Shown here: in pieces, positions 257 to 17,860 of the stretch
How positions within the stretch are numbered: position 1 is the first letter of the stretch
Layout: the number at the start of each line of letters is the position of its first letter
Assembly: GCA_018819405.1 (NCBI GenBank)
Contig: JAHJQF010000001.1
Span: 577,377-641,376, forward strand
DNA length: 64,000 nucleotides
Direction of reading: 5' to 3'
Origin: Patescibacteria group bacterium
Lineage (GTDB): Bacteria; Patescibacteriota; Patescibacteriia; UBA1558; GWA2-36-10
The notes under the pieces: model-generated
The model's database searches: none
Seen by the model: only the letters and a program-made list of their open reading frames with translations
Told to the model about the DNA's origin: nothing
Program-made: the position numbers and the translations under genes

Positions 257-736
257 ATGACCGAAGAAAATAAAAAATATTTAAAATTTGGCAAATACAC
301 AGCTAATTGCTCGGAGGAGCTTTTAGGTAAAATTAAAACTTTAAATTTAGATAAAGTAGACAAAGACACTGTTCATAAAATTTTTAAACTTATTAGACAA
401 GAGTTTGATCCAAGATTACACAAGGTTGAAATAGTGAATGATCTTGCAAAATCCCGATTTATTTCGGCTAAAGATTTATATAGTAAAAGACAATATTCTT
501 GTGGTTCTTTAGCAACATTGGTTGCTTCTATCCTTCGAACTTTAGGTGTGCCAAACAAGCTAATCGATGGAAAATATATAAAAGATAATCCAAATATGAG
601 ACATGCTTGGAATGAAGTATATTTATTAGATCAGGGAAAGTTTGTGGCCTTTGATATAACTAAACCGGGGTTTTCATTGAGTAAATATCATATAAAAGAA
701 GGTGAATACATTGATTGGGAGGATTTAGAAATATAA
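257..736 (+). CDS. transglutaminase-like cysteine peptidase domain protein
   Basis: Candidate Cys-His-Asp arrangement: CGSLATLVASILRTLGVP, then HAWNEVY, then a later Asp, characteristic of the transglutaminase-like superfamily. Confidence 0.6.
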   Translation: MTEENKKYLKFGKYTANCSEELLGKIKTLNLDKVDKDTVHKIFKLIRQEFDPRLHKVEIVNDLAKSRFISAKDLYSKRQYSCGSLATLVASILRTLGVPNKLIDGKYIKDNPNMRHAWNEVYLLDQGKFVAFDITKPGFSLSKYHIKEGEYIDWEDLEI

Positions 737-753
737 AAAATGATCCAAAAGAA

Positions 754-1341
754 ATGCCTAATAAAAGTAATATATTAGAAGCAGAAGCAAAATTTAGATG
801 TAAAGATATTGATAAATTGAAATCTTTGTGCCAGAAGTATAATTTTCGAAAAAAAGACTTAATCAAAGAAATAGATGATTATTTTACCGACAAAGAAAAA
901 ACTTTTATAAGAGATAGAGTATGTTTGAGGTTCCGTGATAAAAATGGAAAGAAGGAATTCACGTATAAGGGTAAATCGGAGTCAGATTCTAATCTTTTTA
1001 TTAAAAACGAATATAATATACAAATGGACCAATCCGAATATAAAGAGAAAATAAGATTTTTAGAATCACTGGGTTTTTATAAATATGTCACGGTTATTAA
1101 AAAAAGAGAGGTGTATACTCAAGTTGATGGGCATTATACCAAGAATGTTATGTTTGATAATGTAGAGGGAGTCGGTAATTTTGTGGAGTTTGAGATTATA
1201 ACTCAAAATAAAGATATATCAGATCAAAATGTAATAAAAAATAAGCTGAATCAATTTATTGATAATTTTAGAGAAGTTGGTTTAGAAAAAGCCGATCTTC
1301 CGTATAGAGATTATGTATCAGAATCAAAAGGTATAGAATAG
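754..1341 (+). CDS. CYTH-domain protein (class IV adenylyl cyclase / triphosphatase-like)
   Basis: N-terminal ILEAEAKFR (ExExK motif) and a C-terminal FVEFEI strand as in CYTH domains. The track ORF starts at a TTG at 715, but the ATG at 754 avoids overlap with the upstream gene. Confidence 0.55.
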   Translation: MPNKSNILEAEAKFRCKDIDKLKSLCQKYNFRKKDLIKEIDDYFTDKEKTFIRDRVCLRFRDKNGKKEFTYKGKSESDSNLFIKNEYNIQMDQSEYKEKIRFLESLGFYKYVTVIKKREVYTQVDGHYTKNVMFDNVEGVGNFVEFEIITQNKDISDQNVIKNKLNQFIDNFREVGLEKADLPYRDYVSESKGIE

Positions 1342-1347
1342 ATATAT

Positions 1348-1506
1348 ATGAAAAATAAAAAACACAATTTAATTTATCAGATTGCATGGTTGTTTATTAT
1401 TATTCTGATATTGTTTGGGTGTTTGATATTGGCTGTTCCCTGGTGGGTATTTTCAGGAATAAAGAATGTAATCACCAGAGAAGAGCAGTACGCAGTATAT
1501 TGGTAA
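1348..1506 (+). CDS. small hydrophobic membrane peptide (52 aa), hypothetical
   Basis: ATG-to-TAA ORF not in the 60-aa track: MKNKKHNLIYQIAWLFIIILILFGCLILAVPWWVFSGIKNVITREEQYAVYW. It has a single TM helix and sits directly upstream of the toxin module. Confidence 0.3.
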   Translation: MKNKKHNLIYQIAWLFIIILILFGCLILAVPWWVFSGIKNVITREEQYAVYW

Positions 1507-1544: not shown

Positions 1545-2699
1545 ATGAAAAAAAGCGATTTTGGGAGCATAATTTTTATGTTTTGCACTTTGATAATGAT
1601 TGTTCCCCGGCAGATCTTGGCTGTCGGGGACGCAGTCAAACAAATAACTGATAAAACAAAATATGTAGATCAGTATTTTGAGGTTAATCAAAATGGCCAA
1701 TTTAAATTGTATGTTTATTTAGGAGATCAAAAAATTGCTACTATAGATAATGATGATAATTATTTCAATTTGGACAACCATTTGAGCTCACATACCATTA
1801 TTACCAACCCGACGGGTCAAATAGTAGAGACAAATGATTATGATGATTATGGCAGTGTTATACACAGTGAATCATCAATAAATAATGATTATAAATTCAC
1901 TGGTAAGGAGTTTGATACAGAAACGGGCTTGCAATATTTTGGTCAGAGATATTATGATAGTGATGTTGGCAGATTTGCTAGTATTGATCCTTTGCTTATA
2001 TCTGAGATAAATCAATTTTTGTCTGATCCGCAACAGCTCAATAGCTATAGCTACAGTCGTAATAATCCAATTAGCTTAGTGGATAAGACAGGGGAAAAAG
2101 TGTCTGAGTTTCAGCCATATTATAGTAGTAGCGGGTTTTATGAATACAGGCAGGATTATGGTAAATATAGAGGTATGGAATTGGTAAGTGCTGGCGAGTA
2201 TTCGGGACAAGGTTGGCATGATTATCAATGTGTCGATTGGGTTAAAAAATTTGTGAATGACCAATATAAAGTTGAATTAGGCAGCATAGGTAACGCCAAT
2301 TTTTATAGTAAACAATCAAGTTTTAATGATTTTAATAAGAGTCACGACGGACAATATACTGTTTATAAAAATAATAGCAGTATAATGCCTCAAGAAAATG
2401 ATATTTTGACTTGGTCAGGTGGCGATTATGGACACGTAGGTATAATTGCGGAAGTAAGTTTTGATGGAAATTCTAATATAGGTTATGTTTATACATTAGA
2501 GCAGAATTATAGCGGTAAACAGGGACTATATAGTCAATCATTTGTTCGTTCATACAATGATAGTGGTCAGCCAGAATATACAGTAAATGATAGAGGTGGA
2601 TTAAAAGTTCAAGGATGGGCACGCTATAGTCAGCAGACTAGTATTCCATATAGTAATATATTATATACTCCCGCTCCGGGAAATTATATTTATGAATAG
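1545..2699 (+). CDS. mini-Rhs protein: signal/TM anchor + RHS repeat-associated core + C-terminal CHAP-domain (peptidoglycan amidase/peptidase) toxin
   Basis: N-terminal hydrophobic FGSIIFMFCTLIMIV. RHS core block DNHLSSHTIITNPTGQ...YKFTGKEFDTETGLQYFGQRYYDSDVGRFASIDP...NNPISLVDKTGE parallels the core of the 2170-aa protein downstream. The C-terminus has CHAP-like Cys (QCVDWVKKF) and His (GDYGHVGIIAEV) motifs. Confidence 0.6.
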   Translation: MKKSDFGSIIFMFCTLIMIVPRQILAVGDAVKQITDKTKYVDQYFEVNQNGQFKLYVYLGDQKIATIDNDDNYFNLDNHLSSHTIITNPTGQIVETNDYDDYGSVIHSESSINNDYKFTGKEFDTETGLQYFGQRYYDSDVGRFASIDPLLISEINQFLSDPQQLNSYSYSRNNPISLVDKTGEKVSEFQPYYSSSGFYEYRQDYGKYRGMELVSAGEYSGQGWHDYQCVDWVKKFVNDQYKVELGSIGNANFYSKQSSFNDFNKSHDGQYTVYKNNSSIMPQENDILTWSGGDYGHVGIIAEVSFDGNSNIGYVYTLEQNYSGKQGLYSQSFVRSYNDSGQPEYTVNDRGGLKVQGWARYSQQTSIPYSNILYTPAPGNYIYE

Positions 2700-3219
2700 T
2701 AAAAAAACAATATTAATTATAATTATCGTATTGGCAGCTATAATTTATTTTTATTTAAATTTTTATAAAAATAATAAAAAGCCCATTGGTTCTAATAACA
2801 TAAATGTCATAAATTTTCAGTCAGAAAATCAAGAATCTCCTGAAGGGTATAAAAAATTTGTTTCTCAAAATGAAAAATTAATCTTTTTTTATAAAAATGA
2901 TTGGGAATGCAGCGAAGTGGTTTATGATAAAAGAGTGGATTGTTATCCTATAGATAGGATCATGGAGGAATATGATTCAGGTCTAGATAAACAAATTGTA
3001 TATTATCCTGACATAAGTATTTATGACGAGAGTGATCTATGCTCTTTGGTCGTTGACCAAGAAGAATTATTAAAAGCAGAAAAGGAGCCGCTAGTATATA
3101 ATGAATATGGTGAAAATTATTATGGTCTTTTTTATAAAAAATTTAATAATTGTATGACAAAGATTATAACATTGCCCTACATTGATTCTCAAGAAAAATT
3201 AGAAGAAATAATAAGATAA
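2692..3219 (+). CDS. putative cognate immunity protein (N-terminal membrane anchor, extracytoplasmic body)
   Basis: Its start overlaps the toxin stop by 8 nt (translational coupling). TM helix ILIIIIVLAAIIYFYL. No recognisable catalytic motif. Its position immediately 3' of a CHAP-tipped toxin is typical of toxin/immunity pairs. Confidence 0.45.
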   Translation: MNSKKTILIIIIVLAAIIYFYLNFYKNNKKPIGSNNINVINFQSENQESPEGYKKFVSQNEKLIFFYKNDWECSEVVYDKRVDCYPIDRIMEEYDSGLDKQIVYYPDISIYDESDLCSLVVDQEELLKAEKEPLVYNEYGENYYGLFYKKFNNCMTKIITLPYIDSQEKLEEIIR

Positions 3220-3263: not shown

Positions 3264-6200
3264 ATGACAAGCATGAGAAAAATTAATAAATCCAGACTAG
3301 TAATATTATTTTTGATGTTTAGTCTGGTTTTTTCTAGTGTAGCGCCAAGTTTGGCACAGGCTAGAGAAATACTCACTCCAGTGGAAGTAGTGCCAGTAGA
3401 AGATTCAAAAGAAACAGGTATTCCTGTGGTGGAGATTTTGCCTTTGCCAGTAGAGGAATATCCTATTAATGATAAGCCTGTAGATATTGAGCCAATTATT
3501 GATGAGCCGGTTTTGTCACCAGAAGAGCGACTGGAAACACTTTTAGAAGATCCGCCAGCCGATATAACTTATTTGGATAAAGATGAGAAAAAACTGGCTA
3601 ATAAGAAATTAAATATAGATGTTGATAATAATACAGGTGCTTTAATTTATAATTATCCTATTCAAATTCCTTCAGGCCGTAATAATTTTCAGACAGATAT
3701 CAGTTTAACTTATAATAGCCAAGATAAAGAGACACATAATTTATTTGGTTTAGGATGGTCGGTAAACATTCCCAGTATAGAGGTAAGCACTAAACGGGGC
3801 GTTTATTATATGTATAGTAATTACGATTATATCTCATCTATGAGTGGTGAGTTGGTGCCGGTGGGCGCTGTCACTCCGTATGGTAATTATGGCGCTCGGG
3901 TTGAAAACGGCGACTATTTACAATATGAATTTTCTAGTATTACTAATGCTTGGACAGCGACCGATAAACAGGGGATAGTTTATAAATTTGGATCCAGCTT
4001 ATCTAGTCGTCAGGATAACCCTGAAGGACCGAGTATGATATATAAATGGATGCTAGAAGAGGTAAGAGATACAAATGACAATTATATTCGCTATGAATAT
4101 TATAAGGATCAGGGGCAGATTTATCCAGCCAAGATATTTTATACAGGGCACGGTAGCACCGATGGGATTTTCGAAATAGATTTTATCAGAGAGTCTCGTC
4201 TAGATGATTTGGAATCTTATGATAGTAGGTTTTTGGTCAAGAATAATTATCGTATTTCTGAAATACAAATAAAAGTGAATGGCTCTTGGGTCAAAAAATA
4301 TAATTTTAATTATACAGTTGGGGAAAATGGGTCTTTATCAATTTTGGACAACATTGTGGAAAGTGGTAGAGATGAAACAAGTGGACAAGTGATAACATTA
4401 CCCAGTGATGATATGAGTTATAGCCAGGATTTAGAAAGTTGGCAAGGTGGAATAGATTGGAATTTTCCAGTTGGTTTTATTAGTGACAATGGCTATCAGT
4501 CTTTTGATCTGGGCGTACGCATGGCTGATATCAATGGCGATGGATTGACCGATATAGTCAAAGGTTATAGAGATATAAAAGAAATTTATATTAATCATTA
4601 CCCCGATTGGAGTACTAGTACCACTTATTCATTGCCAGATTCTTTTATTTCGGGGGACAATTTTGATGATGGTTTGAGATTGGCCGATGTGAATGGGGAT
4701 AATTTAGTGGACTTGATAAAAGCTGTATATCTTCAGGACGAAGTTAGAGAAATCAGAGCGGTCTATATCAATAATGGTACAAACTGGGTTTTGGATCCTT
4801 CTTGGATTTTTCCTTTGAATTTTGTCAGGCATGATGATTCGGGTGCGGGTATAAGAAGTTTTGATTTGGGTACGCGTATGGCCGATATCAATGGTGACGG
4901 TTTGGTTGATGTGGTATTGGGTTCAAATATAGAAACAAACAAAATTTATATTAATAATGGACATGGTTGGGATTTGGAAACAAATTATACTTTACCTACT
5001 TATTTTGTAGATTCGGATCAGGACGCGGGCACTCGTTTTATGGATGTTAATAGTGATGGTTTGATAGACATTGTCAGAGGAGTGAATGCTTATGGTGCAG
5101 GAGGTGGAAATCAACATAATGAAGTTTATATTAATAATGGGCATGGTTGGGAACTGAATTTAAATTATAGTCTGCCCACTTATTTTGTAAATTTTGATGG
5201 TAGTTGGTATACAGATTATGGTACTAGATTATCAGATATCAATGGGGATGGTTTGATTGACATTCTTCGTGATATATATCCTGATACTTCCGAGGTTTAT
5301 ATTAATACGGGTCAAGGTTGGCATTTAAATAATAATTATTACATATTGAGTCATTTTTTAGGAGGGTCATTTATGATAGACCAAGGGGTTAGACTTTTTG
5401 ATATCAATGGTGACGGGCAAGATGATTTTATAAGAGCTAAAGAGGCTTATCCCAGATATGTTCATGTAAGTTTAGCAAATAAAGAAAATTTAGAAACAGT
5501 TAATAATTCTCGTGGCAGTCAAATTAATTTGGAATATCAGTCAGCTACTCAATATATAGACAGCCCAGACAATCTACCTAATCCCGACTTACCATTTAAT
5601 ATAGAGACAGTCAAAAATATTGTTATAGACGATGGTTTGGGAGGTATTGCCACTACTACCTATAGCTATAGTGGGGGAGACTACTATTATGCTGATCCAT
5701 ATGATAAAAAGTTTGCTGGCTTTGCAGAAGTAGAAAAAACAATTGGTAATCAGAAAACCACCACTTACTATCACCAAGGTAATGTTAGTGATTCTAGTCA
5801 AGGAGAATATCAAGATAGCTACTATAAGATTGGTAAGCCATATCGCCAAGAAATATATGATAATAATACCAATGGATTATTGAATCAGAATATTTACAAA
5901 TGGGAAGAAACCGACTTAGGGCATAATAATAAATTTGTATATAATTCTCAGAAGGCGTCTACTGATTTTACGCAAAGCATTCAATCAACAGCTGTGCAAA
6001 ATGAATATGATTTTAGCACGGGAAATTTACTTACTGAGCATAGTTTGGGTCAAGTGCAGGTAGATACTGCAACTGGTGAAATTTTGGATCAAGTAATTGG
6101 CGATGAAAAAGACACAAATTATGATTACGCCCAAAATACAACCAAACATATTTTAGCAGCTCCAAAAACTAAAATTATATCGAACACTTCTGATAGTAAG

Positions 6201-9200
6201 GAACAAAATCTATACTATGATAATTTACCATTAGGTCAAATAGAAAAAGTCAATTTGACTAAAGAGGACTATATAGAACAAGGCGTAGAAATAAATAGAA
6301 ATTTTAACAGTTATGGCTTGGTGTCTGAAGAAATTAGTCCAGAGGGTGATTCTACTGCTATTGTTTATGATAGCTTAAATCTTTACCCATCAGAAATTAC
6401 CAACGTCTTTAATCAAACTACCTATACGGAATACAATTTGCTTAATGGGCAACTTGCCACCTCCACTGCACCTAATGGAATGCTGACGATTAATAGTTTT
6501 GACGCTTTTGGTCGGCTGGTAGAGGTAAAAATTTCGGACCCAGATAATCCCACTACAACATTTATTAAACAAGAAATTGAATACCAAGATCCTTTTGTAT
6601 TTTTTAGATATAGTGACGATACAGGCTGGTTGTCTCCAACACAAACCGGAAAATACTATAATCAATTTTATAATCCAAGTAATGCTTATGCTAGTGACGA
6701 TATTTATACTACAGCCAGAGATTTTGGTAATGGTGGTTCATCAAGATTTCAATCATACGAAGGATTTAATATAAATCTTCCAGCTGCCTCTGAAATAATT
6801 GGCTTTGAAGTAATGAGTGAACATTTAGTAGATAATACTACCGATGTTGATGAATCTATAAGGTACTATTCTGCTAGTAATGGGGTTTGGTCAGATCCCC
6901 GATTTTTATCAGTTTCTACTATTGATCATGTAGATACAGTGGGAGGTTCCGATGATATTTGGGCATTAAACCCCGTAAGCTCTGATTTTATTAATGATAA
7001 TTTTTCAGTAAATTATTCTGGTTCTCGGCTTGATGGTGGGGATACTACTTGGTTTTTAGATGATATAAAAATTAAGGTTTATTATGGTGTAAATACTGAG
7101 ATAGGCTACAAAGAAACCAAAGACTATTTTGATGCCACTAGCTACATCATTTCTCGTGAATACTACGATGGCCTATATAGAGTAGTGCAAAAGAAATCTC
7201 AAACTGCTACTGCCAATCAGTATGCTACAGTAGATATCAGCTATGATTCTCAGGGTAGAGTAGATAGGCAGTCATTGCCATATATTACTTCTACTTTGGA
7301 ATATACAACAGCAAATCTTAGTCAACCAGCCAAGACCTATACCTATGATGCCTTAGATAGAGTATTGTCAGAAGCTACTCCAACTGGCGTGACCAGTTAT
7401 GAATATGATGGCTTCAAGACTACTATCACTGATCCAAACGGCAATATCAAAGAGCTAACCAAAGACGCCTACGGCAATTTGGTGGAAGTCAAAGAGCATA
7501 ATGATTCTAATATATATACCACTAGTTATGACTATACTTTGACCAACAAATTGGAAAAAATCACTGACAGTCAGGGTAATATTAGAAATTTCCACTACGA
7601 CGCCTTAGACAATCTAGACTGGCAGGATATGGTGCATTTATCATCAGTAGCCGATCCTGAGAAAATACAGTACACTCATGACAAAAATGGCAATGTGCTG
7701 ACTGAGACTAGCTTCAAGGGAGACGCTATTTCCTATGAGTATGATAGTTTAAATAGAGTGTTGTATGAAAAATTAGATAATAGTCCAGTTATTAGTTATG
7801 CCTACGATCAAAATGGTGACATTGGTCAGCTGTCTTTTGTAGATTATGGTGGAGGTAATTCCAAGGCCTATGACTATGATATACTAGGACGACTTACCAC
7901 AGCTACCACAACTATTGAAAATGAAGTCTTTGTCATGAAATATGACTACAATTTAAATGGTGACATCAAAGAAATACAATATCCAAATGCTTGGAAAGTA
8001 GCTTATAGTTTTGATTCCATTGGCCAAGTAAATGGTGTGTCTCTTGATAAAGGTCAGGGTCCAATGAGTATAGTAAATAATATTGTTTACAACCAAAATG
8101 GCCAGATGACTCATCTGGAGCGCGCCAATGGCGTAGTTAGTGATTATACTTATGATCCTCAGCAAAATTTCCGTTTAACTGATTTGATTAGCACTCAAGG
8201 TGCTACAACTTTGCAAGACATATCATATACTTATGACAATATCGGTAATATCACAAATATCACTGACAGCTCTGACACTGACTTGGCCAAGAGCGTGGAT
8301 TATGAATACGATGACTTCTACAGACTGGCATCGAGTACAGTCAGCTATGTCACTCATCCGGCTGACAATTATTCACGAGAGTATCAGTATGATCAGGTAG
8401 GCAATATGACCTACAACTCAGAACTAGGTACAATGAATTATGCCTTTGACAATCCACACCAGTTGTCCAGCTATGGTAGTCGCAATTTTAGTTATGACGA
8501 CGCTGGTAATATGTATTTAAATGGTGGTATTAGCAAATTTTCTTGGGACTGGAGAAATAGACTCAAAAACAGCTATGACATTGCTACCACCAAAAATAGC
8601 TATTATCAATATGACCACAACAATCAGCGCTTCTTGAAATACACTGAAGATTATGTATTTATTCCTCCAGATTTGGAAGATCCACCAATTGTGGGAATGA
8701 TGTCTTTATCTATGGACACTAGTGGAGGTACTTATGAACTCAGACGTGTCAAAGAAGATAAGTATGTAGATAAGTATTTTGAAAAAGACTTGTCTGATAA
8801 TGAAAAAAGCCACCTATTCCTAGGTAGTACCAGAGTGGCTAGTTTAAAAAATAATGATAATCCATATTATTATATATCTGATCATCTAAGCTCCAATAAT
8901 ATTATTACTGACAATTCGGGCAATACCCTTGAATTGAGTGATTATGAGCCTTATGGTAAAATAAACTATGAAACAGGTTCTTCAGAAAACAACTTCAAAT
9001 TTACCGGCAAGGAAATTGATGAAGAAAATGCCTTGCAATACTTTGGGGCGAGGTATATGGATAACCAGACTGGACGATTTACGACGGTGGATCCGGCTAC
9101 TCTTATACTTCACGATGGTCAGAAGTTGAAAGAGATTACCAGAGGTGATCTAGAGAGATTGTTGGCTAATCCGCAGAACCTTAATAGCTATGCATATGCG

Positions 9201-9776
9201 TTGAATAATCCAGTGATAATGAAGGATGATACTGGTGAGTTTGCATTTTTGGCTGTAGTCGCCGTTGCTTGGATTGCTGCTGAAGTAGGTTTTAGTGCGT
9301 GGGATGCTTATGATGCTGGTAATGCGTGGTTTGGTGAGGATACTAGTTCAAAAGAAAAGACATCATCTGGTGGATTCCTACTAGTAGGGTTGGCATTACC
9401 TGGTGGTGGGTATGGGCACATTGATGAAGGTGTTGATGTATTAAAAACGGTCGATAAAACAATTGGCAAATCAATTGATAACGCTGTAAATAAAATTGGT
9501 AATACAGTGTCAGATCATCTTACTAAAATGGATTATGCAGGCTTTATAAGAGATCTGAGTAAGGCACCAGTTTGGAGCAATAATTTAGGCAGGAATTTTG
9601 ACCATTATGATGAAGTTATGTCCGCCTATAAAGGTTTGCAAAATAATGTATCAAAGCTTACAAGATATTTAGATAATTATAATTTAGATAAGAAAACAGT
9701 CGACAGCGTTAACAAAGCTATTGATACAGCTAAAAGTCACATAGACAGAATAGATAATATATTAAAATCACATTAG
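3264..9776 (+). CDS. secreted giant Rhs/Tc-toxin-like protein: Sec signal + SpvB/TcB N-terminal domain + FG-GAP-like repeats + YD/RHS repeats + RHS core + unrecognised C-terminal tip
   Basis: Signal peptide ending ...VAPSLAQA. SpvB-N-like ISLTYNSQDKETHNLFGLGWSVNIPSIEV. Six or more D(I/V)NGDGL.D(I/V/L) repeats. Many YDxxGRL/YDxLxR YD repeats. RHS core DHLSSNNIITDNSG...KFTGKEIDEENALQYFGARYMDNQTGRFTTVDP...NNPVIMKDDTGE. After the core come about 178 aa with no recognisable toxin motif. Confidence 0.85.
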   Translation: MTSMRKINKSRLVILFLMFSLVFSSVAPSLAQAREILTPVEVVPVEDSKETGIPVVEILPLPVEEYPINDKPVDIEPIIDEPVLSPEERLETLLEDPPADITYLDKDEKKLANKKLNIDVDNNTGALIYNYPIQIPSGRNNFQTDISLTYNSQDKETHNLFGLGWSVNIPSIEVSTKRGVYYMYSNYDYISSMSGELVPVGAVTPYGNYGARVENGDYLQYEFSSITNAWTATDKQGIVYKFGSSLSSRQDNPEGPSMIYKWMLEEVRDTNDNYIRYEYYKDQGQIYPAKIFYTGHGSTDGIFEIDFIRESRLDDLESYDSRFLVKNNYRISEIQIKVNGSWVKKYNFNYTVGENGSLSILDNIVESGRDETSGQVITLPSDDMSYSQDLESWQGGIDWNFPVGFISDNGYQSFDLGVRMADINGDGLTDIVKGYRDIKEIYINHYPDWSTSTTYSLPDSFISGDNFDDGLRLADVNGDNLVDLIKAVYLQDEVREIRAVYINNGTNWVLDPSWIFPLNFVRHDDSGAGIRSFDLGTRMADINGDGLVDVVLGSNIETNKIYINNGHGWDLETNYTLPTYFVDSDQDAGTRFMDVNSDGLIDIVRGVNAYGAGGGNQHNEVYINNGHGWELNLNYSLPTYFVNFDGSWYTDYGTRLSDINGDGLIDILRDIYPDTSEVYINTGQGWHLNNNYYILSHFLGGSFMIDQGVRLFDINGDGQDDFIRAKEAYPRYVHVSLANKENLETVNNSRGSQINLEYQSATQYIDSPDNLPNPDLPFNIETVKNIVIDDGLGGIATTTYSYSGGDYYYADPYDKKFAGFAEVEKTIGNQKTTTYYHQGNVSDSSQGEYQDSYYKIGKPYRQEIYDNNTNGLLNQNIYKWEETDLGHNNKFVYNSQKASTDFTQSIQSTAVQNEYDFSTGNLLTEHSLGQVQVDTATGEILDQVIGDEKDTNYDYAQNTTKHILAAPKTKIISNTSDSKEQNLYYDNLPLGQIEKVNLTKEDYIEQGVEINRNFNSYGLVSEEISPEGDSTAIVYDSLNLYPSEITNVFNQTTYTEYNLLNGQLATSTAPNGMLTINSFDAFGRLVEVKISDPDNPTTTFIKQEIEYQDPFVFFRYSDDTGWLSPTQTGKYYNQFYNPSNAYASDDIYTTARDFGNGGSSRFQSYEGFNINLPAASEIIGFEVMSEHLVDNTTDVDESIRYYSASNGVWSDPRFLSVSTIDHVDTVGGSDDIWALNPVSSDFINDNFSVNYSGSRLDGGDTTWFLDDIKIKVYYGVNTEIGYKETKDYFDATSYIISREYYDGLYRVVQKKSQTATANQYATVDISYDSQGRVDRQSLPYITSTLEYTTANLSQPAKTYTYDALDRVLSEATPTGVTSYEYDGFKTTITDPNGNIKELTKDAYGNLVEVKEHNDSNIYTTSYDYTLTNKLEKITDSQGNIRNFHYDALDNLDWQDMVHLSSVADPEKIQYTHDKNGNVLTETSFKGDAISYEYDSLNRVLYEKLDNSPVISYAYDQNGDIGQLSFVDYGGGNSKAYDYDILGRLTTATTTIENEVFVMKYDYNLNGDIKEIQYPNAWKVAYSFDSIGQVNGVSLDKGQGPMSIVNNIVYNQNGQMTHLERANGVVSDYTYDPQQNFRLTDLISTQGATTLQDISYTYDNIGNITNITDSSDTDLAKSVDYEYDDFYRLASSTVSYVTHPADNYSREYQYDQVGNMTYNSELGTMNYAFDNPHQLSSYGSRNFSYDDAGNMYLNGGISKFSWDWRNRLKNSYDIATTKNSYYQYDHNNQRFLKYTEDYVFIPPDLEDPPIVGMMSLSMDTSGGTYELRRVKEDKYVDKYFEKDLSDNEKSHLFLGSTRVASLKNNDNPYYYISDHLSSNNIITDNSGNTLELSDYEPYGKINYETGSSENNFKFTGKEIDEENALQYFGARYMDNQTGRFTTVDPATLILHDGQKLKEITRGDLERLLANPQNLNSYAYALNNPVIMKDDTGEFAFLAVVAVAWIAAEVGFSAWDAYDAGNAWFGEDTSSKEKTSSGGFLLVGLALPGGGYGHIDEGVDVLKTVDKTIGKSIDNAVNKIGNTVSDHLTKMDYAGFIRDLSKAPVWSNNLGRNFDHYDEVMSAYKGLQNNVSKLTRYLDNYNLDKKTVDSVNKAIDTAKSHIDRIDNILKSH
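4500..5440 (+). repeat. FG-GAP/VCBS-like calcium-binding repeats (protein level) inside the giant toxin gene
   Basis: Recurring DINGDGLTDIV, DVNGDNLVDLI, DINGDGLVDVV, DVNSDGLIDIV, DINGDGLIDIL, DINGDGQDDFI spaced about 50 aa apart. Confidence 0.6.
7200..8900 (+). repeat. YD/RHS repeat region (protein level) inside the giant toxin gene
   Basis: Repeated YDxxGR(L/V) units: SYDSQGRVDRQ, TYDALDRVLSE, EYDSLNRVLYE, DYDILGRLTTA, EYDDFYRLASS, YQYDQVGNMTY. Confidence 0.65.
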
Positions 9777-9777
9777 T

Positions 9778-10221
9778 ATGATAGAAAATTTAGAAAAGTC
9801 ACTAAATGAGCTAGATGGCTCTATGGACGCTAGTGATCCCAATGATTCTCTTGTTAAAAAGGTAGAAGATATTAGGAAAAAGAGGTTAAAAGATTTAAGT
9901 GTGGATGATTTGGCATTATTGTTAAGGCAGCAGATTAGTTTAGGTTTTGTGGTACCGTTATCTTTAAGCAAATTAAATGAGAATATACTCATTGAGACTG
10001 AAGACACCGGATTTCGTCTACTATCAACTTTATTAAAAGTTGAAAAGGATTTTTGGTCTAGCAATGATGAGTTATATAATCAAACTGCAGATTTAATAAA
10101 TAGTAAGATGGATGAAATTATAAATCCAAAAATGGATAATCCAGTAGAATTAGATAGCTATATATCTGATGAGCTACCAGAGATTTTGAAACTATATCAG
10201 AGTTTTAAAGATTTAATATAA
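9778..10221 (+). CDS. putative immunity protein for the C-terminal tip of the giant toxin (small acidic cytoplasmic protein)
   Basis: Starts 2 nt after the toxin stop. 147 aa, acidic, no signal peptide. Position and coupling typical of Rhs immunity genes. Confidence 0.4.
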   Translation: MIENLEKSLNELDGSMDASDPNDSLVKKVEDIRKKRLKDLSVDDLALLLRQQISLGFVVPLSLSKLNENILIETEDTGFRLLSTLLKVEKDFWSSNDELYNQTADLINSKMDEIINPKMDNPVELDSYISDELPEILKLYQSFKDLI

Positions 10222-11627: not shown

Positions 11628-11754
11628 AATAATCTCCGAGCCCTAGAAAAATCCTCAGAATTTGATCGCTGATAGTTGTGTATGCATGCTTTTTGCGGAG
11701 ACATTTTCCTGCTATTTGACTGGACAAAAAGAGGTAACAATTAAATAAATGTGA

Positions 11755-11791
11755 CCTCGGAGGTTAATTAACCTCCGAGGTTGTTTCTTTT
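11755..11791 (+). terminator. intrinsic terminator-like perfect 26-bp palindrome + T-tract
   Basis: CCTCGGAGGTTAATTAACCTCCGAGG followed by TTGTTTCTTTT. Confidence 0.5.
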
Positions 11792-14710: not shown

Positions 14711-16270
14711 ATGTCTAATATACAAAAAAAAGCAAAGACCTTAGCCCTTGTTATTTTGGATGGTTGGGGTTTGTGGGGAGAAGAAAAGGGCAATGCTATA
14801 GCGCAAGCTGATACTCCGGTTATGGCAAAATTGTACAAAAAATATCCCAATATTCAGATTCAGGCTTCAGAAAAATATGTAGGCTTGCCTGACGGTCAAC
14901 CAGGAAATTCTGAGGCGGGGCACATGAATATTGGCGCGGGACGGGTGATAGAGCAGGATGCAGTGACAATATCACGCTCTATAAATAATGGTACTTTTTT
15001 TAAAAATCCAGCTTTTTTGCAAGCTGCTAGCCATGCGGAAAAACACAAATCAGATATACATCTGATAGGCCTACTTTCCAACGGCACCAGTCCTCATTCC
15101 CATGATGATCACATATTATCTCTCTTGAGTTTTTTTATTTCTAAGACAAAACAAAATATTTATTTACACCTTTTTACTGATGGTCGTGACAGTCCTCCTT
15201 ATTCGGCTCTCAAAATATTGGCTCAGTATAATACTGTATTCAACAGTGATCGGGTAAAAATTGCCTCAGTGATGGGTAGGTTTTATGCGATGGACAGAAA
15301 AAAAGCTTGGGATAGAACCCGTAAAGCTTATGAGGCTATAGTTATAGGTAAAGGATATAAAGCTAAGAGCGCTGTCGAAGCTGTCAATCAAGCCTACAAT
15401 AGAGGAGAGAGCGATGAATTTATATTGCCGACAGTTATTAGTAAAAATAAAAAACCTCTTGGGCCAATAAATGATAATGATAGCGTTGTATTTTTTAATC
15501 TGCGTTCTGATAGAGCTAGGCAGTTGACCAAAGCTTTTGTACAAAAAGACTTTGAAAAGAAAAACGGAGGCACTTTCAAGCGCCAAGTAGTGCCCAAAAA
15601 TCTTATTTTTGTAGCTTTGACCGACTTTGGTCCTGATTTGGGTGGGGTGCTCACTGCTTATCCAGGTATTGATATACCAGATACTTTGCCGATAGCTCTT
15701 AAAGATGTCAGACAACTTTATATAGCGGAAACAGAAAAATATGCTCATGTTACATATTTTATAAACGGTGGTTATGATCATCCTATAGCTGGAGAGGATA
15801 GGATTGATATTCCTTCCAAAGATGTGCTTTCTTATGATAAAAAGCCAGAAATGAGTACCAAGGAAATAACTGATAAAGTAATACAATGTCTAAAAAATGA
15901 TAAATATGATTTTTTCTGTATCAATTTTGCAGCGCCTGATATGGTTGGCCATACTGGCAATCTCAAAGCGGGTATCAAAGCAGTGGAGGCAGTAGATAAA
16001 CATTTGGGTAGAATAGTGGATGAATTTTTGAAATTCAGAGGGACAGTAATAGTTACGGCCGATCATGGAAATGTAGAGGAAATGATAAATTTAAAGACAC
16101 AGGAGATTGATACCGAACACTCCATAAATCCAGTCCCTTTTATAATTGTTTCAGATAAAAAATATAAATTGAAAAAAACCGGCCGTCTTTCCCATATTGC
16201 ACCGACTATTTTGGATATCATGGGGATAGATAAACCAATATTAATGAAAGACAATAGTTTAATAAAGTAA
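14711..16270 (+). CDS. gpmI: 2,3-bisphosphoglycerate-independent phosphoglycerate mutase (iPGM), copy 1
   Basis: LVILDGWG N-terminal signature, HTGN metal-binding motif, TADHGN. 519 aa. Confidence 0.9.
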   Translation: MSNIQKKAKTLALVILDGWGLWGEEKGNAIAQADTPVMAKLYKKYPNIQIQASEKYVGLPDGQPGNSEAGHMNIGAGRVIEQDAVTISRSINNGTFFKNPAFLQAASHAEKHKSDIHLIGLLSNGTSPHSHDDHILSLLSFFISKTKQNIYLHLFTDGRDSPPYSALKILAQYNTVFNSDRVKIASVMGRFYAMDRKKAWDRTRKAYEAIVIGKGYKAKSAVEAVNQAYNRGESDEFILPTVISKNKKPLGPINDNDSVVFFNLRSDRARQLTKAFVQKDFEKKNGGTFKRQVVPKNLIFVALTDFGPDLGGVLTAYPGIDIPDTLPIALKDVRQLYIAETEKYAHVTYFINGGYDHPIAGEDRIDIPSKDVLSYDKKPEMSTKEITDKVIQCLKNDKYDFFCINFAAPDMVGHTGNLKAGIKAVEAVDKHLGRIVDEFLKFRGTVIVTADHGNVEEMINLKTQEIDTEHSINPVPFIIVSDKKYKLKKTGRLSHIAPTILDIMGIDKPILMKDNSLIK

Positions 16271-16282
16271 ATTTCTAACGGG

Positions 16283-17860
16283 ATGAACAGACCAAAACCA
16301 GTGGTATTAATTATATTAGATGGATTCGGTATTGCTCCACCGTCTCGAGCCAATGCAATTTCTTTGGCCAAGACGCCCAATCTTGATAAATATTCTTCCA
16401 ATTATCCGGTCATGCCGGTGGCTGCTTCAGGTGAGGCAGTTGGTTTGTCTTGGGGAGAAATGGGCAATTCCCAAGTGGGTCATTTATCATTGGGTTCAGG
16501 TGTTATCCCATATCAAAATTTGCCTAGGATTTCCAAGTCAATTATTGATGGTGATTTTTTACAAAACGAAGCTTTTTTGAAAGTTTGTGATCATGTCAAA
16601 AAAAATAACAGCGCCCTTCATCTTATTGGTTTGCTTAGCTCTGGAGGTGTGCATAGCTATAATGAACACCTTTATGCTTTGATAGATTTGGCCAAAGAAC
16701 AAAAAGTAGAGCGGGTTTATGTGCATGCTTTTTTAGATGGTCGCGATACACCTTATAATAGTGCTTTAAATTTTGTTACTAAACTGGAAGAAAGATTAAA
16801 AAAAGTAGGTTTGGGGGCTATTGCTACACTTAGTGGTCGTTTTTGGGCAATGGATAGAGACAATCGTTGGGACAGGACGGAAAAAGCCTGGCGAGCCTTG
16901 GTAGACGGCGTGTCTGATGAAAAATTTGAAGATCCCCTAGTGGCTATAGAAAAATCCTATGAAAAAAAAGTTTATGATGAAGAGTTTGTTCCAGTGGTGA
17001 TTGTCGATGACATGGGCAAACCACGAGGCACCATCAAAGACAAGGATGGGGTAATATTTTTTAATTTTAGATCAGATCGTGCTAGACAACTGACCAAGGC
17101 TTTGGTTTTGCCTGGTTTTGAAAAATTCAAAAGAGACTATTTCAAAAATTTGATGATGATTACTATGGCTGAATATGAAAAAGATTTGCCGGTTTTGGTG
17201 GCTTTTCCTCCTTTGGTCATAGAGACGCCTTTAGCTAGAATTATTTCTGAAGCCGGATTGCGTCAGCTTCATATTGCCGAAACTGAAAAATATGCTCATG
17301 TTACTTATTTTTTTAATGGTGGTCAAGAAAAAATATATGAAGGCGAAGACAGAGTACTGGTGCCATCACCTCAGGTTACTTCGTATGACCAAAAACCAGC
17401 TATGAGTGCCAGAGATTTGACAGCCAAGGTTACTCAGGCCATCAAAGAAGGCACTTATGATTTTATAGTGCTCAATTATGCTAATCCTGATATGATTGGC
17501 CATACTGGCAATATCCAGGCTACTATTGAAGCTATAGAAATATTAGATCAGTTGATTGGGGAAGCAGTAGAAACTACTTTGTCGTATGAGGGTGTAGTTT
17601 TAATAACCTCTGATCATGGTAATGCCGAGAGTCTTTATGACCTGCAGACCGGTGAGATAAACAAAGAACATTCCAACAATCCGGTGCCTTTATTTATTAT
17701 TGGAAAAGATTTTGCTGGTAAGGCAGTTTTGTCCGGTGTAGCCGGTACTGATCTTAGTCATGTCACGCCAGTGGGAGTGTTGTCTGATGTAGCACCGACA
17801 ATACTCAAGATTATGGGACTCAAAAAACCGCCCGAAATGACGGGCAGCTCTTTGATATAA
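16283..17860 (+). CDS. gpmI: 2,3-bisphosphoglycerate-independent phosphoglycerate mutase (iPGM), tandem paralog copy 2
   Basis: VVLIILDGFG, HTGN, TSDHGN. 525 aa. Clearly homologous to the upstream gene but diverged. Confidence 0.85.
   Translation: MNRPKPVVLIILDGFGIAPPSRANAISLAKTPNLDKYSSNYPVMPVAASGEAVGLSWGEMGNSQVGHLSLGSGVIPYQNLPRISKSIIDGDFLQNEAFLKVCDHVKKNNSALHLIGLLSSGGVHSYNEHLYALIDLAKEQKVERVYVHAFLDGRDTPYNSALNFVTKLEERLKKVGLGAIATLSGRFWAMDRDNRWDRTEKAWRALVDGVSDEKFEDPLVAIEKSYEKKVYDEEFVPVVIVDDMGKPRGTIKDKDGVIFFNFRSDRARQLTKALVLPGFEKFKRDYFKNLMMITMAEYEKDLPVLVAFPPLVIETPLARIISEAGLRQLHIAETEKYAHVTYFFNGGQEKIYEGEDRVLVPSPQVTSYDQKPAMSARDLTAKVTQAIKEGTYDFIVLNYANPDMIGHTGNIQATIEAIEILDQLIGEAVETTLSYEGVVLITSDHGNAESLYDLQTGEINKEHSNNPVPLFIIGKDFAGKAVLSGVAGTDLSHVTPVGVLSDVAPTILKIMGLKKPPEMTGSSLI

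Follow-up and report, generated by a model that had tools for sequence, protein, structure and literature searches.

What is the role of a gene that encodes the C-terminal end of an Rhs toxin behind an export signal of its own, and that stands directly ahead of a giant Rhs gene? The question is raised by positions 1545-3219 of a 64-kb stretch of Patescibacteria DNA, which was analysed over its whole length and is called the window below. A 384-amino acid (aa) protein with an Rhs core, the mini-Rhs, is encoded there together with a 175-aa partner, and the gene of a 2170-aa Rhs protein, the giant Rhs, follows downstream. We think it likely that the pair is a toxin-immunity module, in which a Sec-exported polymorphic toxin, built on an Rhs core that has lost its shell, is matched by an extracytoplasmic immunity protein. 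An earlier note on this DNA had described a 384-aa open reading frame (ORF) followed by another one overlapping it by 8 nucleotides (nt), and both stand in the ORF list, at 1545-2699 and 2692-3219. The two genes and the parts of the first one are as follows:

Positions 1545..2699, plus strand: gene of the 384-aa predicted toxin, a shell-less Rhs-core/CHAP protein, stop codon included (ORF list, domain matches, family of full-length homologues at 36-61% identity).

Positions 1545..1628, plus strand: predicted Sec signal peptide, residues 1-28 (MKKSDFGSIIFMFCTLIMIVPRQILAVG), with putative cleavage before D29 (inspection).

Positions 1659..2096, plus strand: Rhs C-terminal core fragment, residues 39-184, with a few YD-like strands and a complete Rhs-associated core domain (TIGR03696, paralogy).

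Positions 2067..2096, plus strand: core/tip junction PISLVDKTGE (PxxxxDxxGx), with a predicted self-cleavage site after E184 (motif match).

Positions 2097..2696, plus strand: 200-aa predicted toxin tip of CHAP fold (PF05257, AlphaFold2 (AF2), Foldseek, phmmer).

Positions 2692..3219, plus strand: gene of the 175-aa partner, probably an immunity gene (ORF list; 8-nt overlap with the toxin gene).

Inspection of the N-terminus of the 384-aa protein (MKKSDFGSIIFMFCTLIMIVPRQILAVG, then DAV) showed a KK n-region, a hydrophobic core of 14 residues, Pro21 and small residues at positions -3 and -1. AF2 modelled a helix at residues 7-25, and the pattern MKK(K)SDF...AxA/G was conserved among the homologues; the ATG at 1545 is supported as the start because the KKSDFGS beginning is conserved in them. 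The earlier note had read this segment as an N-terminal hydrophobic anchor. The hydrophobic segment is indeed present, but it looks like a signal peptide that would be cleaved off and not like a permanent anchor. A lipoprotein reading of Cys14 was rejected, neither FMFC nor MLC being a lipobox.

Behind the signal peptide, residues 99-183 matched the NCBIfam model Rhs_assc_core (TIGR03696) along positions 1-75 of its 76 (E 2.4e-21, 76 bits against a cut-off of 32.5), and in BLASTP residues 39-184 were 41% identical to residues 1833-1992 of the giant Rhs (E 7e-37), corroborating the paralogy between the two cores that had been noticed earlier; this paralogy is old. No match to the RHS/YD repeat models PF05593 and TIGR01643 was found at E <= 0.1 in the 384-aa protein, and only residues 39-98 aligned with the final strands that precede the core in the giant Rhs. 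A core fragment of 146 aa is too small and cannot enclose a tip of 200 aa. It holds two putative autoprotease aspartates, D148 (1986-1988) and D180 (2082-2084).

A CHAP-like Cys/His domain had been proposed for the C-terminus, and the Pfam search bore this out: CHAP (PF05257) matched residues 223-321 (nt 2211-2507) with E 1.2e-10 and 42.2 bits, the gathering cut-off being 26. Cys229 is encoded at 2229-2231, His297 at 2433-2435 and E319-Q320-N321 at 2499-2507. When 31 full-length homologues of 30-61% identity were aligned, C229, H297, Q320 and N321 were invariant, as were D148, P149, D180 and G183 of the core, and the position of E319 was occupied by E or D throughout the family. AF2 gave a predicted local distance difference test (pLDDT) of about 90 for residues 190-370, and a papain-like alpha+beta CHAP fold is confidently predicted for the tip. 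The top Foldseek matches were all CHAP domains, namely the E. coli glutathionylspermidine (Gsp) amidase 3a30 (E 1.7e-6, target TM-score 0.68), phage K LysK CHAPK 4csh and LysGH15 4olk, and phmmer against PDB sequences found the CHAP endolysin 8h1i (E 7e-4), LysK and LytN, with alignments that run over the QC, GH and LEQN motifs. The fold and the Cys-His-Glu/Asn catalytic constellation are common to the window tip, to CHAP endolysins and autolysins such as LysK and S. aureus LytN, and to the E. coli Gsp amidase. In contrast to the endolysins and autolysins, the window protein has no cell-wall-binding domain (SH3b, LysM), and its CHAP domain sits behind an Rhs core and is paired with a dedicated inhibitor-like partner.

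Is such a protein a stray fragment or one of a kind that is maintained? A homologue search returned about 45 clusters that share this architecture at lengths of 360-410 aa, from Parcubacteria or Patescibacteria where the sources name them. A word-indexed search with the N-terminal 185 aa alone gave 6 matches and was superseded by an exhaustive HMMER search with residues 1-185, which retrieved 131,312 Rhs-core proteins; its top-scoring matches were overwhelmingly short proteins in which the core begins within about 80 residues of the N-terminus. Parsing all retrieved sequences, we found at least 53 distinct representatives (50%-identity clusters), mostly from Patescibacteria, in which a hydrophobic segment at the N-terminus is followed by a short core and a tip of about 180-220 aa. 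By these sequence comparisons the mini-Rhs is a member of a conserved uncharacterised family, not a stray fragment. The earlier note had reckoned with an assembly error that would have left an internal piece of a longer gene, and we consider a fragment made by mis-assembly or frameshift to have next to no probability. The ORF is intact, its start and signal peptide are conserved, and directly upstream lie unrelated genes (a CYTH gene, and a 52-aa ORF whose end is 38 nt away from the start codon), with nothing that codes for Rhs repeats. An identical protein occurs in an independent assembly (P0001), and the same architecture recurs in dozens of independent assemblies and in more than 50 clusters. 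Nothing in the window speaks for an artefact; one relative, the second copy in a Komeilibacteria locus (L013), is frameshifted in a run of six C.

Conservation within the family is centred on the core. In 52 short proteins with unrelated tips the invariant columns were D124, Y131, R135, Y136, D148, P149, N166, Y168, N174, P175, D180 and G183, all of which fall in core residues 124-183, indicating that selection acts on the core itself. At 7905-8828, L013 (Komeilibacteria CG11) encodes an intact 307-aa protein that consists of a signal peptide, a core of about 65 aa (GLQYFGQRYY...IDP...NNPVRYVDPTGL) and a CHAP tip; P0019 and P0032 are minimal versions that resemble it. This minimal relative points to the protease-bearing core, and not to the YD strands, as the element kept by selection. 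The existence of a family that has only the core (down to about 65 aa) behind a signal peptide suggests that the core is useful by itself, possibly as a self-cleaving release device or pro-domain, or as a constant handle on which tips are exchanged. The accepted picture of Rhs toxins is that of a cocoon, and to our knowledge the core aspartyl autoprotease has been studied only inside a shell; whether it works free of one is directly testable with so small a protein.

Homology among family members with different tips stops exactly at the PxxxxDxxG junction. On the same signal peptide and core module (50-67% identical) we found other tips, namely CHAP-B, VanY/Peptidase_M15_4 and at least two unknown families. 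A census of the 52 proteins counted 29 CHAP tips, two VanY/M15, one Tse3-like muramidase and one barnase-type ribonuclease (RNase), the remainder being unassigned, so that of 33 recognisable tips 32 are peptidoglycan hydrolases. A family that has neither a cocoon nor a translocation device should mainly carry wall enzymes that act outside, and the census agrees with this expectation, with exceptions. The commonest unknown tips, X1 (P0016/P0021 type) and X2 (P0034/P0037 type), had no match in Pfam or among PDB sequences; their His...Cys motifs, read by eye (GHSW...CSAF and GHAF...NCTD, respectively), hint at permuted papain-like enzymes. Tips not directed at the wall were also seen in short Rhs-core proteins (P0057, one member of alignment A3, L032, P0072, P0074, P0154 and P0199), and several such proteins bear glycine-rich or hydrophobic tips that resemble membrane-active peptides.

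Directly 3' of the mini-Rhs gene there was always a small gene whose product has an N-terminal hydrophobic helix and whose family shifts with the tip, in keeping with the immunity-like character that the earlier note had ascribed to the partner. The tips formed 9 clusters and the partners 14, and the partners largely track the tip class: one partner family goes with both VanY loci, a second with four CHAP-B loci, and a third is common to the window and L003 (55% identity). The partner in the window is membrane-anchored, as had been proposed, by a hydrophobic helix at residues ~6-24 (nt 2707-2763), where AF2 placed a helix at residues 2-28 with a pLDDT of about 80; in this model, which was built from 5 sequences and has an overall pLDDT of 46.7, the transmembrane (TM) helix alone is reliable. 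The body of the protein holds four invariant Cys (C73, C84, C117 and C154), which suggests disulfides outside the cytoplasm. No match to the product of 2692-3219 was found in Pfam, NCBIfam, PADLOC or PDB sequences, described immunity families included. The protein is identical to NCBI KKH39_03010, and its family comprises only 5 clusters among 5.8 billion proteins, all from Patescibacteria/Komeilibacteria. Tip polymorphism, partner co-variation and a cysteine-bearing partner that belongs to no described family are hallmarks of polymorphic toxin-immunity pairs in the definitions that Zhang et al. 2012 (PMC3482391) and, later, Jamet and Nassif 2015 (PMC4436062) gave, and the 175-aa partner is probably an immunity protein.

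A CHAP enzyme next to a membrane protein could also be a housekeeping autolysin that serves the cell's own wall growth or division under a membrane regulator, the Rhs core being a functionless relic. Autolysins of the CHAP type are common, NCBIfam gave a weak match to PcsB (E 0.02), and Patescibacteria have reduced genomes with few wall hydrolases. The core, however, is the most conserved part of the family, which fits a relic badly; close relatives swap tips, the partners are hypervariable, the distribution is patchy, and the locus lies in a toxin island, beside an Rhs toxin and a CdiI_3 immunity gene. We consider an autolysin highly improbable.

Under the toxin-immunity reading, Sec would recognise the signal peptide that the 384-aa precursor brings with it and carry the precursor out of a cell that lacks an outer membrane. 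The Rhs core, with its two aspartates (...IDP... and ...DKTGE), would cut after the PxxxxDxxGE junction, or would at least mark the boundary of the exchangeable tip. Once freed, the CHAP cysteine amidase/endopeptidase of about 200 aa (Cys229/His297) would cut the peptidoglycan stem peptides of neighbouring cells, which may be kin competitors, the host cell of a probable episymbiont, or both. The co-translated partner, held by its one TM helix at the outer face of the membrane, would bind and block the CHAP domain on the producer. BacA and YceG/MltG wall functions are encoded in the genome, indicating that the organism builds peptidoglycan and that self-protection is needed.

Several observations weigh against this reading. 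The canonical Rhs cleavage motif is PxxxxDPxG[LWF] (10.1101/2024.02.26.582050), and the junction DKTGE departs from the canonical DPxGL by the substitutions P->K and L->E; the neighbouring giant Rhs is similar at this place (DDTGE). The core fragment was modelled poorly by AF2, with pLDDT 30-65 over residues 40-185. An amide substrate other than peptidoglycan is possible, because the closest structural match of the tip is an amidase for glutathionylspermidine, which is a small conjugate of a thiol and a polyamine. The RNase tip of one short member and the Tse2 ADP-ribosyltransferase tip of a more distant member both require entry into the target cell. The charges that flank the TM helix of the partner (+2 before, +3 after) do not settle the topology alone; its homologues better match an N-in/C-out topology. 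Co-variation is also imperfect, in that L011 combines a CHAP-B tip with a unique partner and L001 (10001-11864) has a CHAP-A tip, 51% identical to that of the window, yet a partner of the family otherwise seen with CHAP-B (36-48% identity to CHAP-B-type partners, e.g. that of L004, 10001-11904). The L001 mismatch may reflect cross-protecting immunity or a recent tip swap that was not accompanied by a partner swap. Lastly, the synteny with the giant Rhs is strong and could mean that the mini-Rhs is a dedicated helper and not an independent toxin. The downstream features on which this last point turns are as follows:

Positions 3264..9776, plus strand: gene of the 2170-aa giant toxin, with signal peptide, SpvB, FG-GAP, RHS shell, Rhs core and a weak Ntox28-like tip (Pfam, NCBIfam).

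Positions 9778..10221, plus strand: CdiI_3-family immunity gene for the tip of the giant Rhs, 147 aa (PF18616, E 3.6e-14).

Positions 11751..11784, plus strand: terminator-like hairpin, the first strong one downstream (15-bp stem with 7 GC pairs, then a T-run).

The gap between the partner ORF and the giant gene is 44 nt and holds no terminator, and the CdiI_3 gene starts 1 nt past the stop of the giant gene. The mini-Rhs pair and the giant Rhs probably form one operon, and the hairpin is the probable end of the toxin island or operon. The order of mini-Rhs, partner and giant SpvB/FG-GAP/Rhs was kept in 13 of 15 evaluable loci (the window, L001, L003, L004/5, L006/7, L008/9, L010, L013, L014, L016, L017, L021 and L050), and the upstream CYTH gene recurs across related loci as well. 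The exceptions are L011, where the pair has no giant Rhs within 10 kb, and L015, where none was found in the ~3.5 kb that could be read downstream. Further short Rhs-core genes occupy the classical orphan position downstream of giant genes (L020, L022 and L032), and some of them have a signal peptide of their own.

This arrangement could be that of a wall-opening helper, the CHAP enzyme opening either the wall of the producer, to let the co-expressed 2170-aa cocoon toxin out, or that of the target, to give the cocoon access to the membrane, and the partner restraining CHAP on the producer. Analogous helpers are EssH of the S. aureus type VII system and the VirB1-type hydrolases, and a folded cocoon of about 240 kDa is unlikely to cross intact peptidoglycan unaided. 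An order that persists over identities spanning 36-70%, a 44-nt gap with the first terminator only at 11751, and wall hydrolases as nearly all of the recognisable tips are consistent with such a helper, although the synteny is perhaps merely inherited within one lineage. Polymorphic tips and co-varying partners, on the other hand, mark antagonistic toxin-immunity pairs and not a housekeeping helper, and some tips are not wall enzymes at all (RNase, Tse2 ADP-ribosyltransferase, glycine-rich or hydrophobic). The two loci without a giant Rhs in the sequence covered, and the three in which short members follow the giant gene, also speak against a helper, which we regard as unlikely. Helper and toxin are compatible readings, and the mini-Rhs may in addition act together with the giant Rhs, with which it is probably co-transcribed. 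That the pair is at least also a toxin-immunity module is argued by the polymorphic tips, the co-varying partners and the L011 pair, which stands alone.

The earlier note had correctly seen a stand-alone gene for signal peptide, C-terminal core and tip upstream of the main Rhs gene (1545 against 3264), but it had called this unusual and suggested that it may be a displaced tip. The architecture turned out to be that of a conserved family, and the upstream position itself is kept in the 13 loci named above. A displaced orphan tip or silent cassette would be a former C-terminus of the main rhs gene that is kept for tip switching, or one to which a signal peptide was added later. Like orphan rhs-CT/rhsI modules, which adjoin a full-length rhs gene, the mini-Rhs pair retains exactly the core's end together with tip and immunity gene, and L013 has two tandem modules, one of them frameshifted, in the manner of a cassette array. 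By definition, however, orphan modules lie downstream, have no trafficking domains and share a homologous stretch with the main gene (PMC4436062). The window module lies upstream, with its own start codon and a conserved signal peptide. When the mini and giant genes of the window were compared by blastn, as had been suggested for locating recombination breakpoints, they had only a 50-nt patch (78%) and a 23-nt patch (91%) in common, and no breakpoint was seen. The displaced-tip reading fails because neither the position, nor the missing trafficking signal, nor the shared DNA homology of an orphan is found in the window module.

The core sequences agree with this. Identities were 44-64% between mini cores, 52-65% between giant cores and 37-51% between mini and giant cores, and the mini and giant cores of the window itself (45% in the cross-genome alignment) were no closer than pairs from different genomes. 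The two kinds of core form separate old groups, which together with the scant DNA homology indicates that the duplication is ancient and that there is no substrate for tip exchange between mini and giant genes. The full-length family, moreover, is conserved across dozens of assemblies. An ancient origin of the mini-Rhs from an Rhs C-terminus is likely; an orphan tip or cassette is a very unlikely account of the pair, and as a recent event it is largely refuted. No further copy of the Rhs core, the CHAP tip or the partner was found in the 64-kb window.

How does a toxin-immunity module of this kind compare with known systems? Zhang et al. 2012 (PMC3482391) had predicted Rhs toxins that are delivered by Sec, bear peptidoglycan-hydrolase tips and have immunity genes linked to them, and giant Rhs toxins have been noted in Saccharibacteria (PMC6031116). 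Our literature searches found no description of shell-less Rhs-core toxins, nor of a fixed position upstream of giant Rhs genes. The core with two aspartates, the PxxxxDxxG junction, the variable tip and the downstream immunity gene are shared with Rhs/YD polymorphic toxins such as the Rhs effectors of type VI secretion systems (T6SS), B. subtilis WapA and the TcB-TcC cocoons of Tc toxins. These have precursors of 1400-2700 aa against 384 aa here, and unlike them the window protein has no YD-repeat shell, some 60 aa of YD-like strands being left and none in the 307-aa relative. It likewise has no encapsulation, N-terminal plug, PAAR, VgrG, SpvB or wall-anchor domain.

The MafB toxins of Neisseria (PMC4436062) resemble the mini-Rhs in being small and Sec-exported, and in their layout of a variable tip behind a short constant module at the N-terminus, with an immunity gene (MafI) alongside. 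The constant module is DUF1020 in MafB and the Rhs core in the mini-Rhs, MafB tips are mostly nucleases or deaminases whereas mini-Rhs tips are mostly wall hydrolases, and the carriers are Gram-negative pathogens in one case and Patescibacteria in the other. Attack on the wall or its precursors outside the cytoplasm, countered by extracytoplasmic immunity, is known from the T6SS Tse1/Tae-Tai amidases and from S. intermedius TelC-TipC, and would be the mode of action here. Gram-positive extracytoplasmic immunity proteins against wall effectors are membrane-anchored. The predicted delivery differs, being by Sec and a self-cleaving Rhs core and not by a type VI or type VII secretion system (T7SS); the window CHAP domain is nearer to Gsp-amidase and endolysin CHAP domains, and the partner has no similarity to the Tai, Tsi or TipC families.

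Patescibacteria are ultra-small, mostly uncultured and probably episymbiotic. The family is a concrete candidate for the means by which they attack the walls of host or competitor cells, and it would offer new pairs of wall hydrolase and inhibitor. Its fixed place ahead of the giant Rhs raises the possibility of a cooperative system of wall opener and cocoon. In its full form, which we put forward as a rather doubtful proposal, the Rhs core would be an autonomous, shell-free, self-cleaving and portable module in a two-part operon, where the Sec-exported, self-releasing wall hydrolase first opens the peptidoglycan of a host or competitor and the giant cocoon, encoded 44 nt downstream, then gains access to the target membrane and delivers an intracellular toxin, each with its own immunity protein. 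Were the pair merely one more toxin-immunity pair, it would be a modest addition to the catalogue of polymorphic toxins.

The L013 locus (Ca. Komeilibacteria CG11, PCWQ01000023.1, 7905-11255) carries its two tandem mini modules upstream of a 2742-aa giant Rhs. Copy 1, the 307-aa "micro" version, has a 338-aa family-II partner. Copy 2 is a window-like module (tip 70% and partner 68% identical), whose signal peptide ORF (9882-9989) is split from the core by the frameshift at the C6 run (9964-9969); a pseudogene, an error of sequencing and phase variation are all conceivable. In the giant Rhs of the window, a hydrophobic stretch, FAFLAVVAVAWIAAEVGFSAW, comes directly after the junction PVIMKDDTGE, ahead of the tip with the weak Ntox28 match (E 1.5e-3, under the cut-off), which may be a divergent RNase with a membrane-entry segment of its own.

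With regard to the surroundings, the 52-aa ORF between the CYTH gene and the toxin gene (window 1348-1506) has one strong TM helix; no family match was found for it, and none was seen at the same position in the related loci examined. PADLOC found no relation to a defence system for any of the genes of the island. CYTH-domain genes lie directly upstream of the toxin pair in the window (257-1341), in L004 (6052-9960) and in L001 (12265-14781), accompanied by a transglutaminase-like gene in the window and by NUDIX genes in L004; in L001 the CYTH domain is part of a fusion with methyltransferase and HAD domains. A few genes upstream, L001, L003, L004 and L008 also encode large sensor kinases of the HisKA_7TM/GAF type. 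This CYTH and sensor-kinase neighbourhood may be lineage synteny only, or may regulate the island.

The hairpin at 11751-11784 is a perfect 15-bp palindrome, GTGACCTCGGAGGTTAATTAACCTCCGAGGTTGT, which scores as a terminator on both strands and lies where the toxin island gives way to the glycolysis genes. Beyond it follow the housekeeping genes PGK, enolase, two iPGM genes, BacA and YceG/MltG. The two iPGM genes, located after PGK and enolase at 14711-17860, stand in tandem and encode paralogous cofactor-independent phosphoglycerate mutases, both of full length (519 and 525 aa), which is unusual for a reduced genome of about 1 Mb. The G+C content of the window is ~30-40%, and its nearest relatives are Candidatus Komeilibacteria and other Patescibacteria. 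Several metagenome-assembled genome (MAG) records with a Patescibacteria-type locus are titled "uncultured Gammaproteobacteria bacterium" (MAG TPA_asm; L001/L012, L014, L021, L022 and others), and the L018 fragment is labelled Zixibacteria; these are probably mislabelled or contaminated bins.

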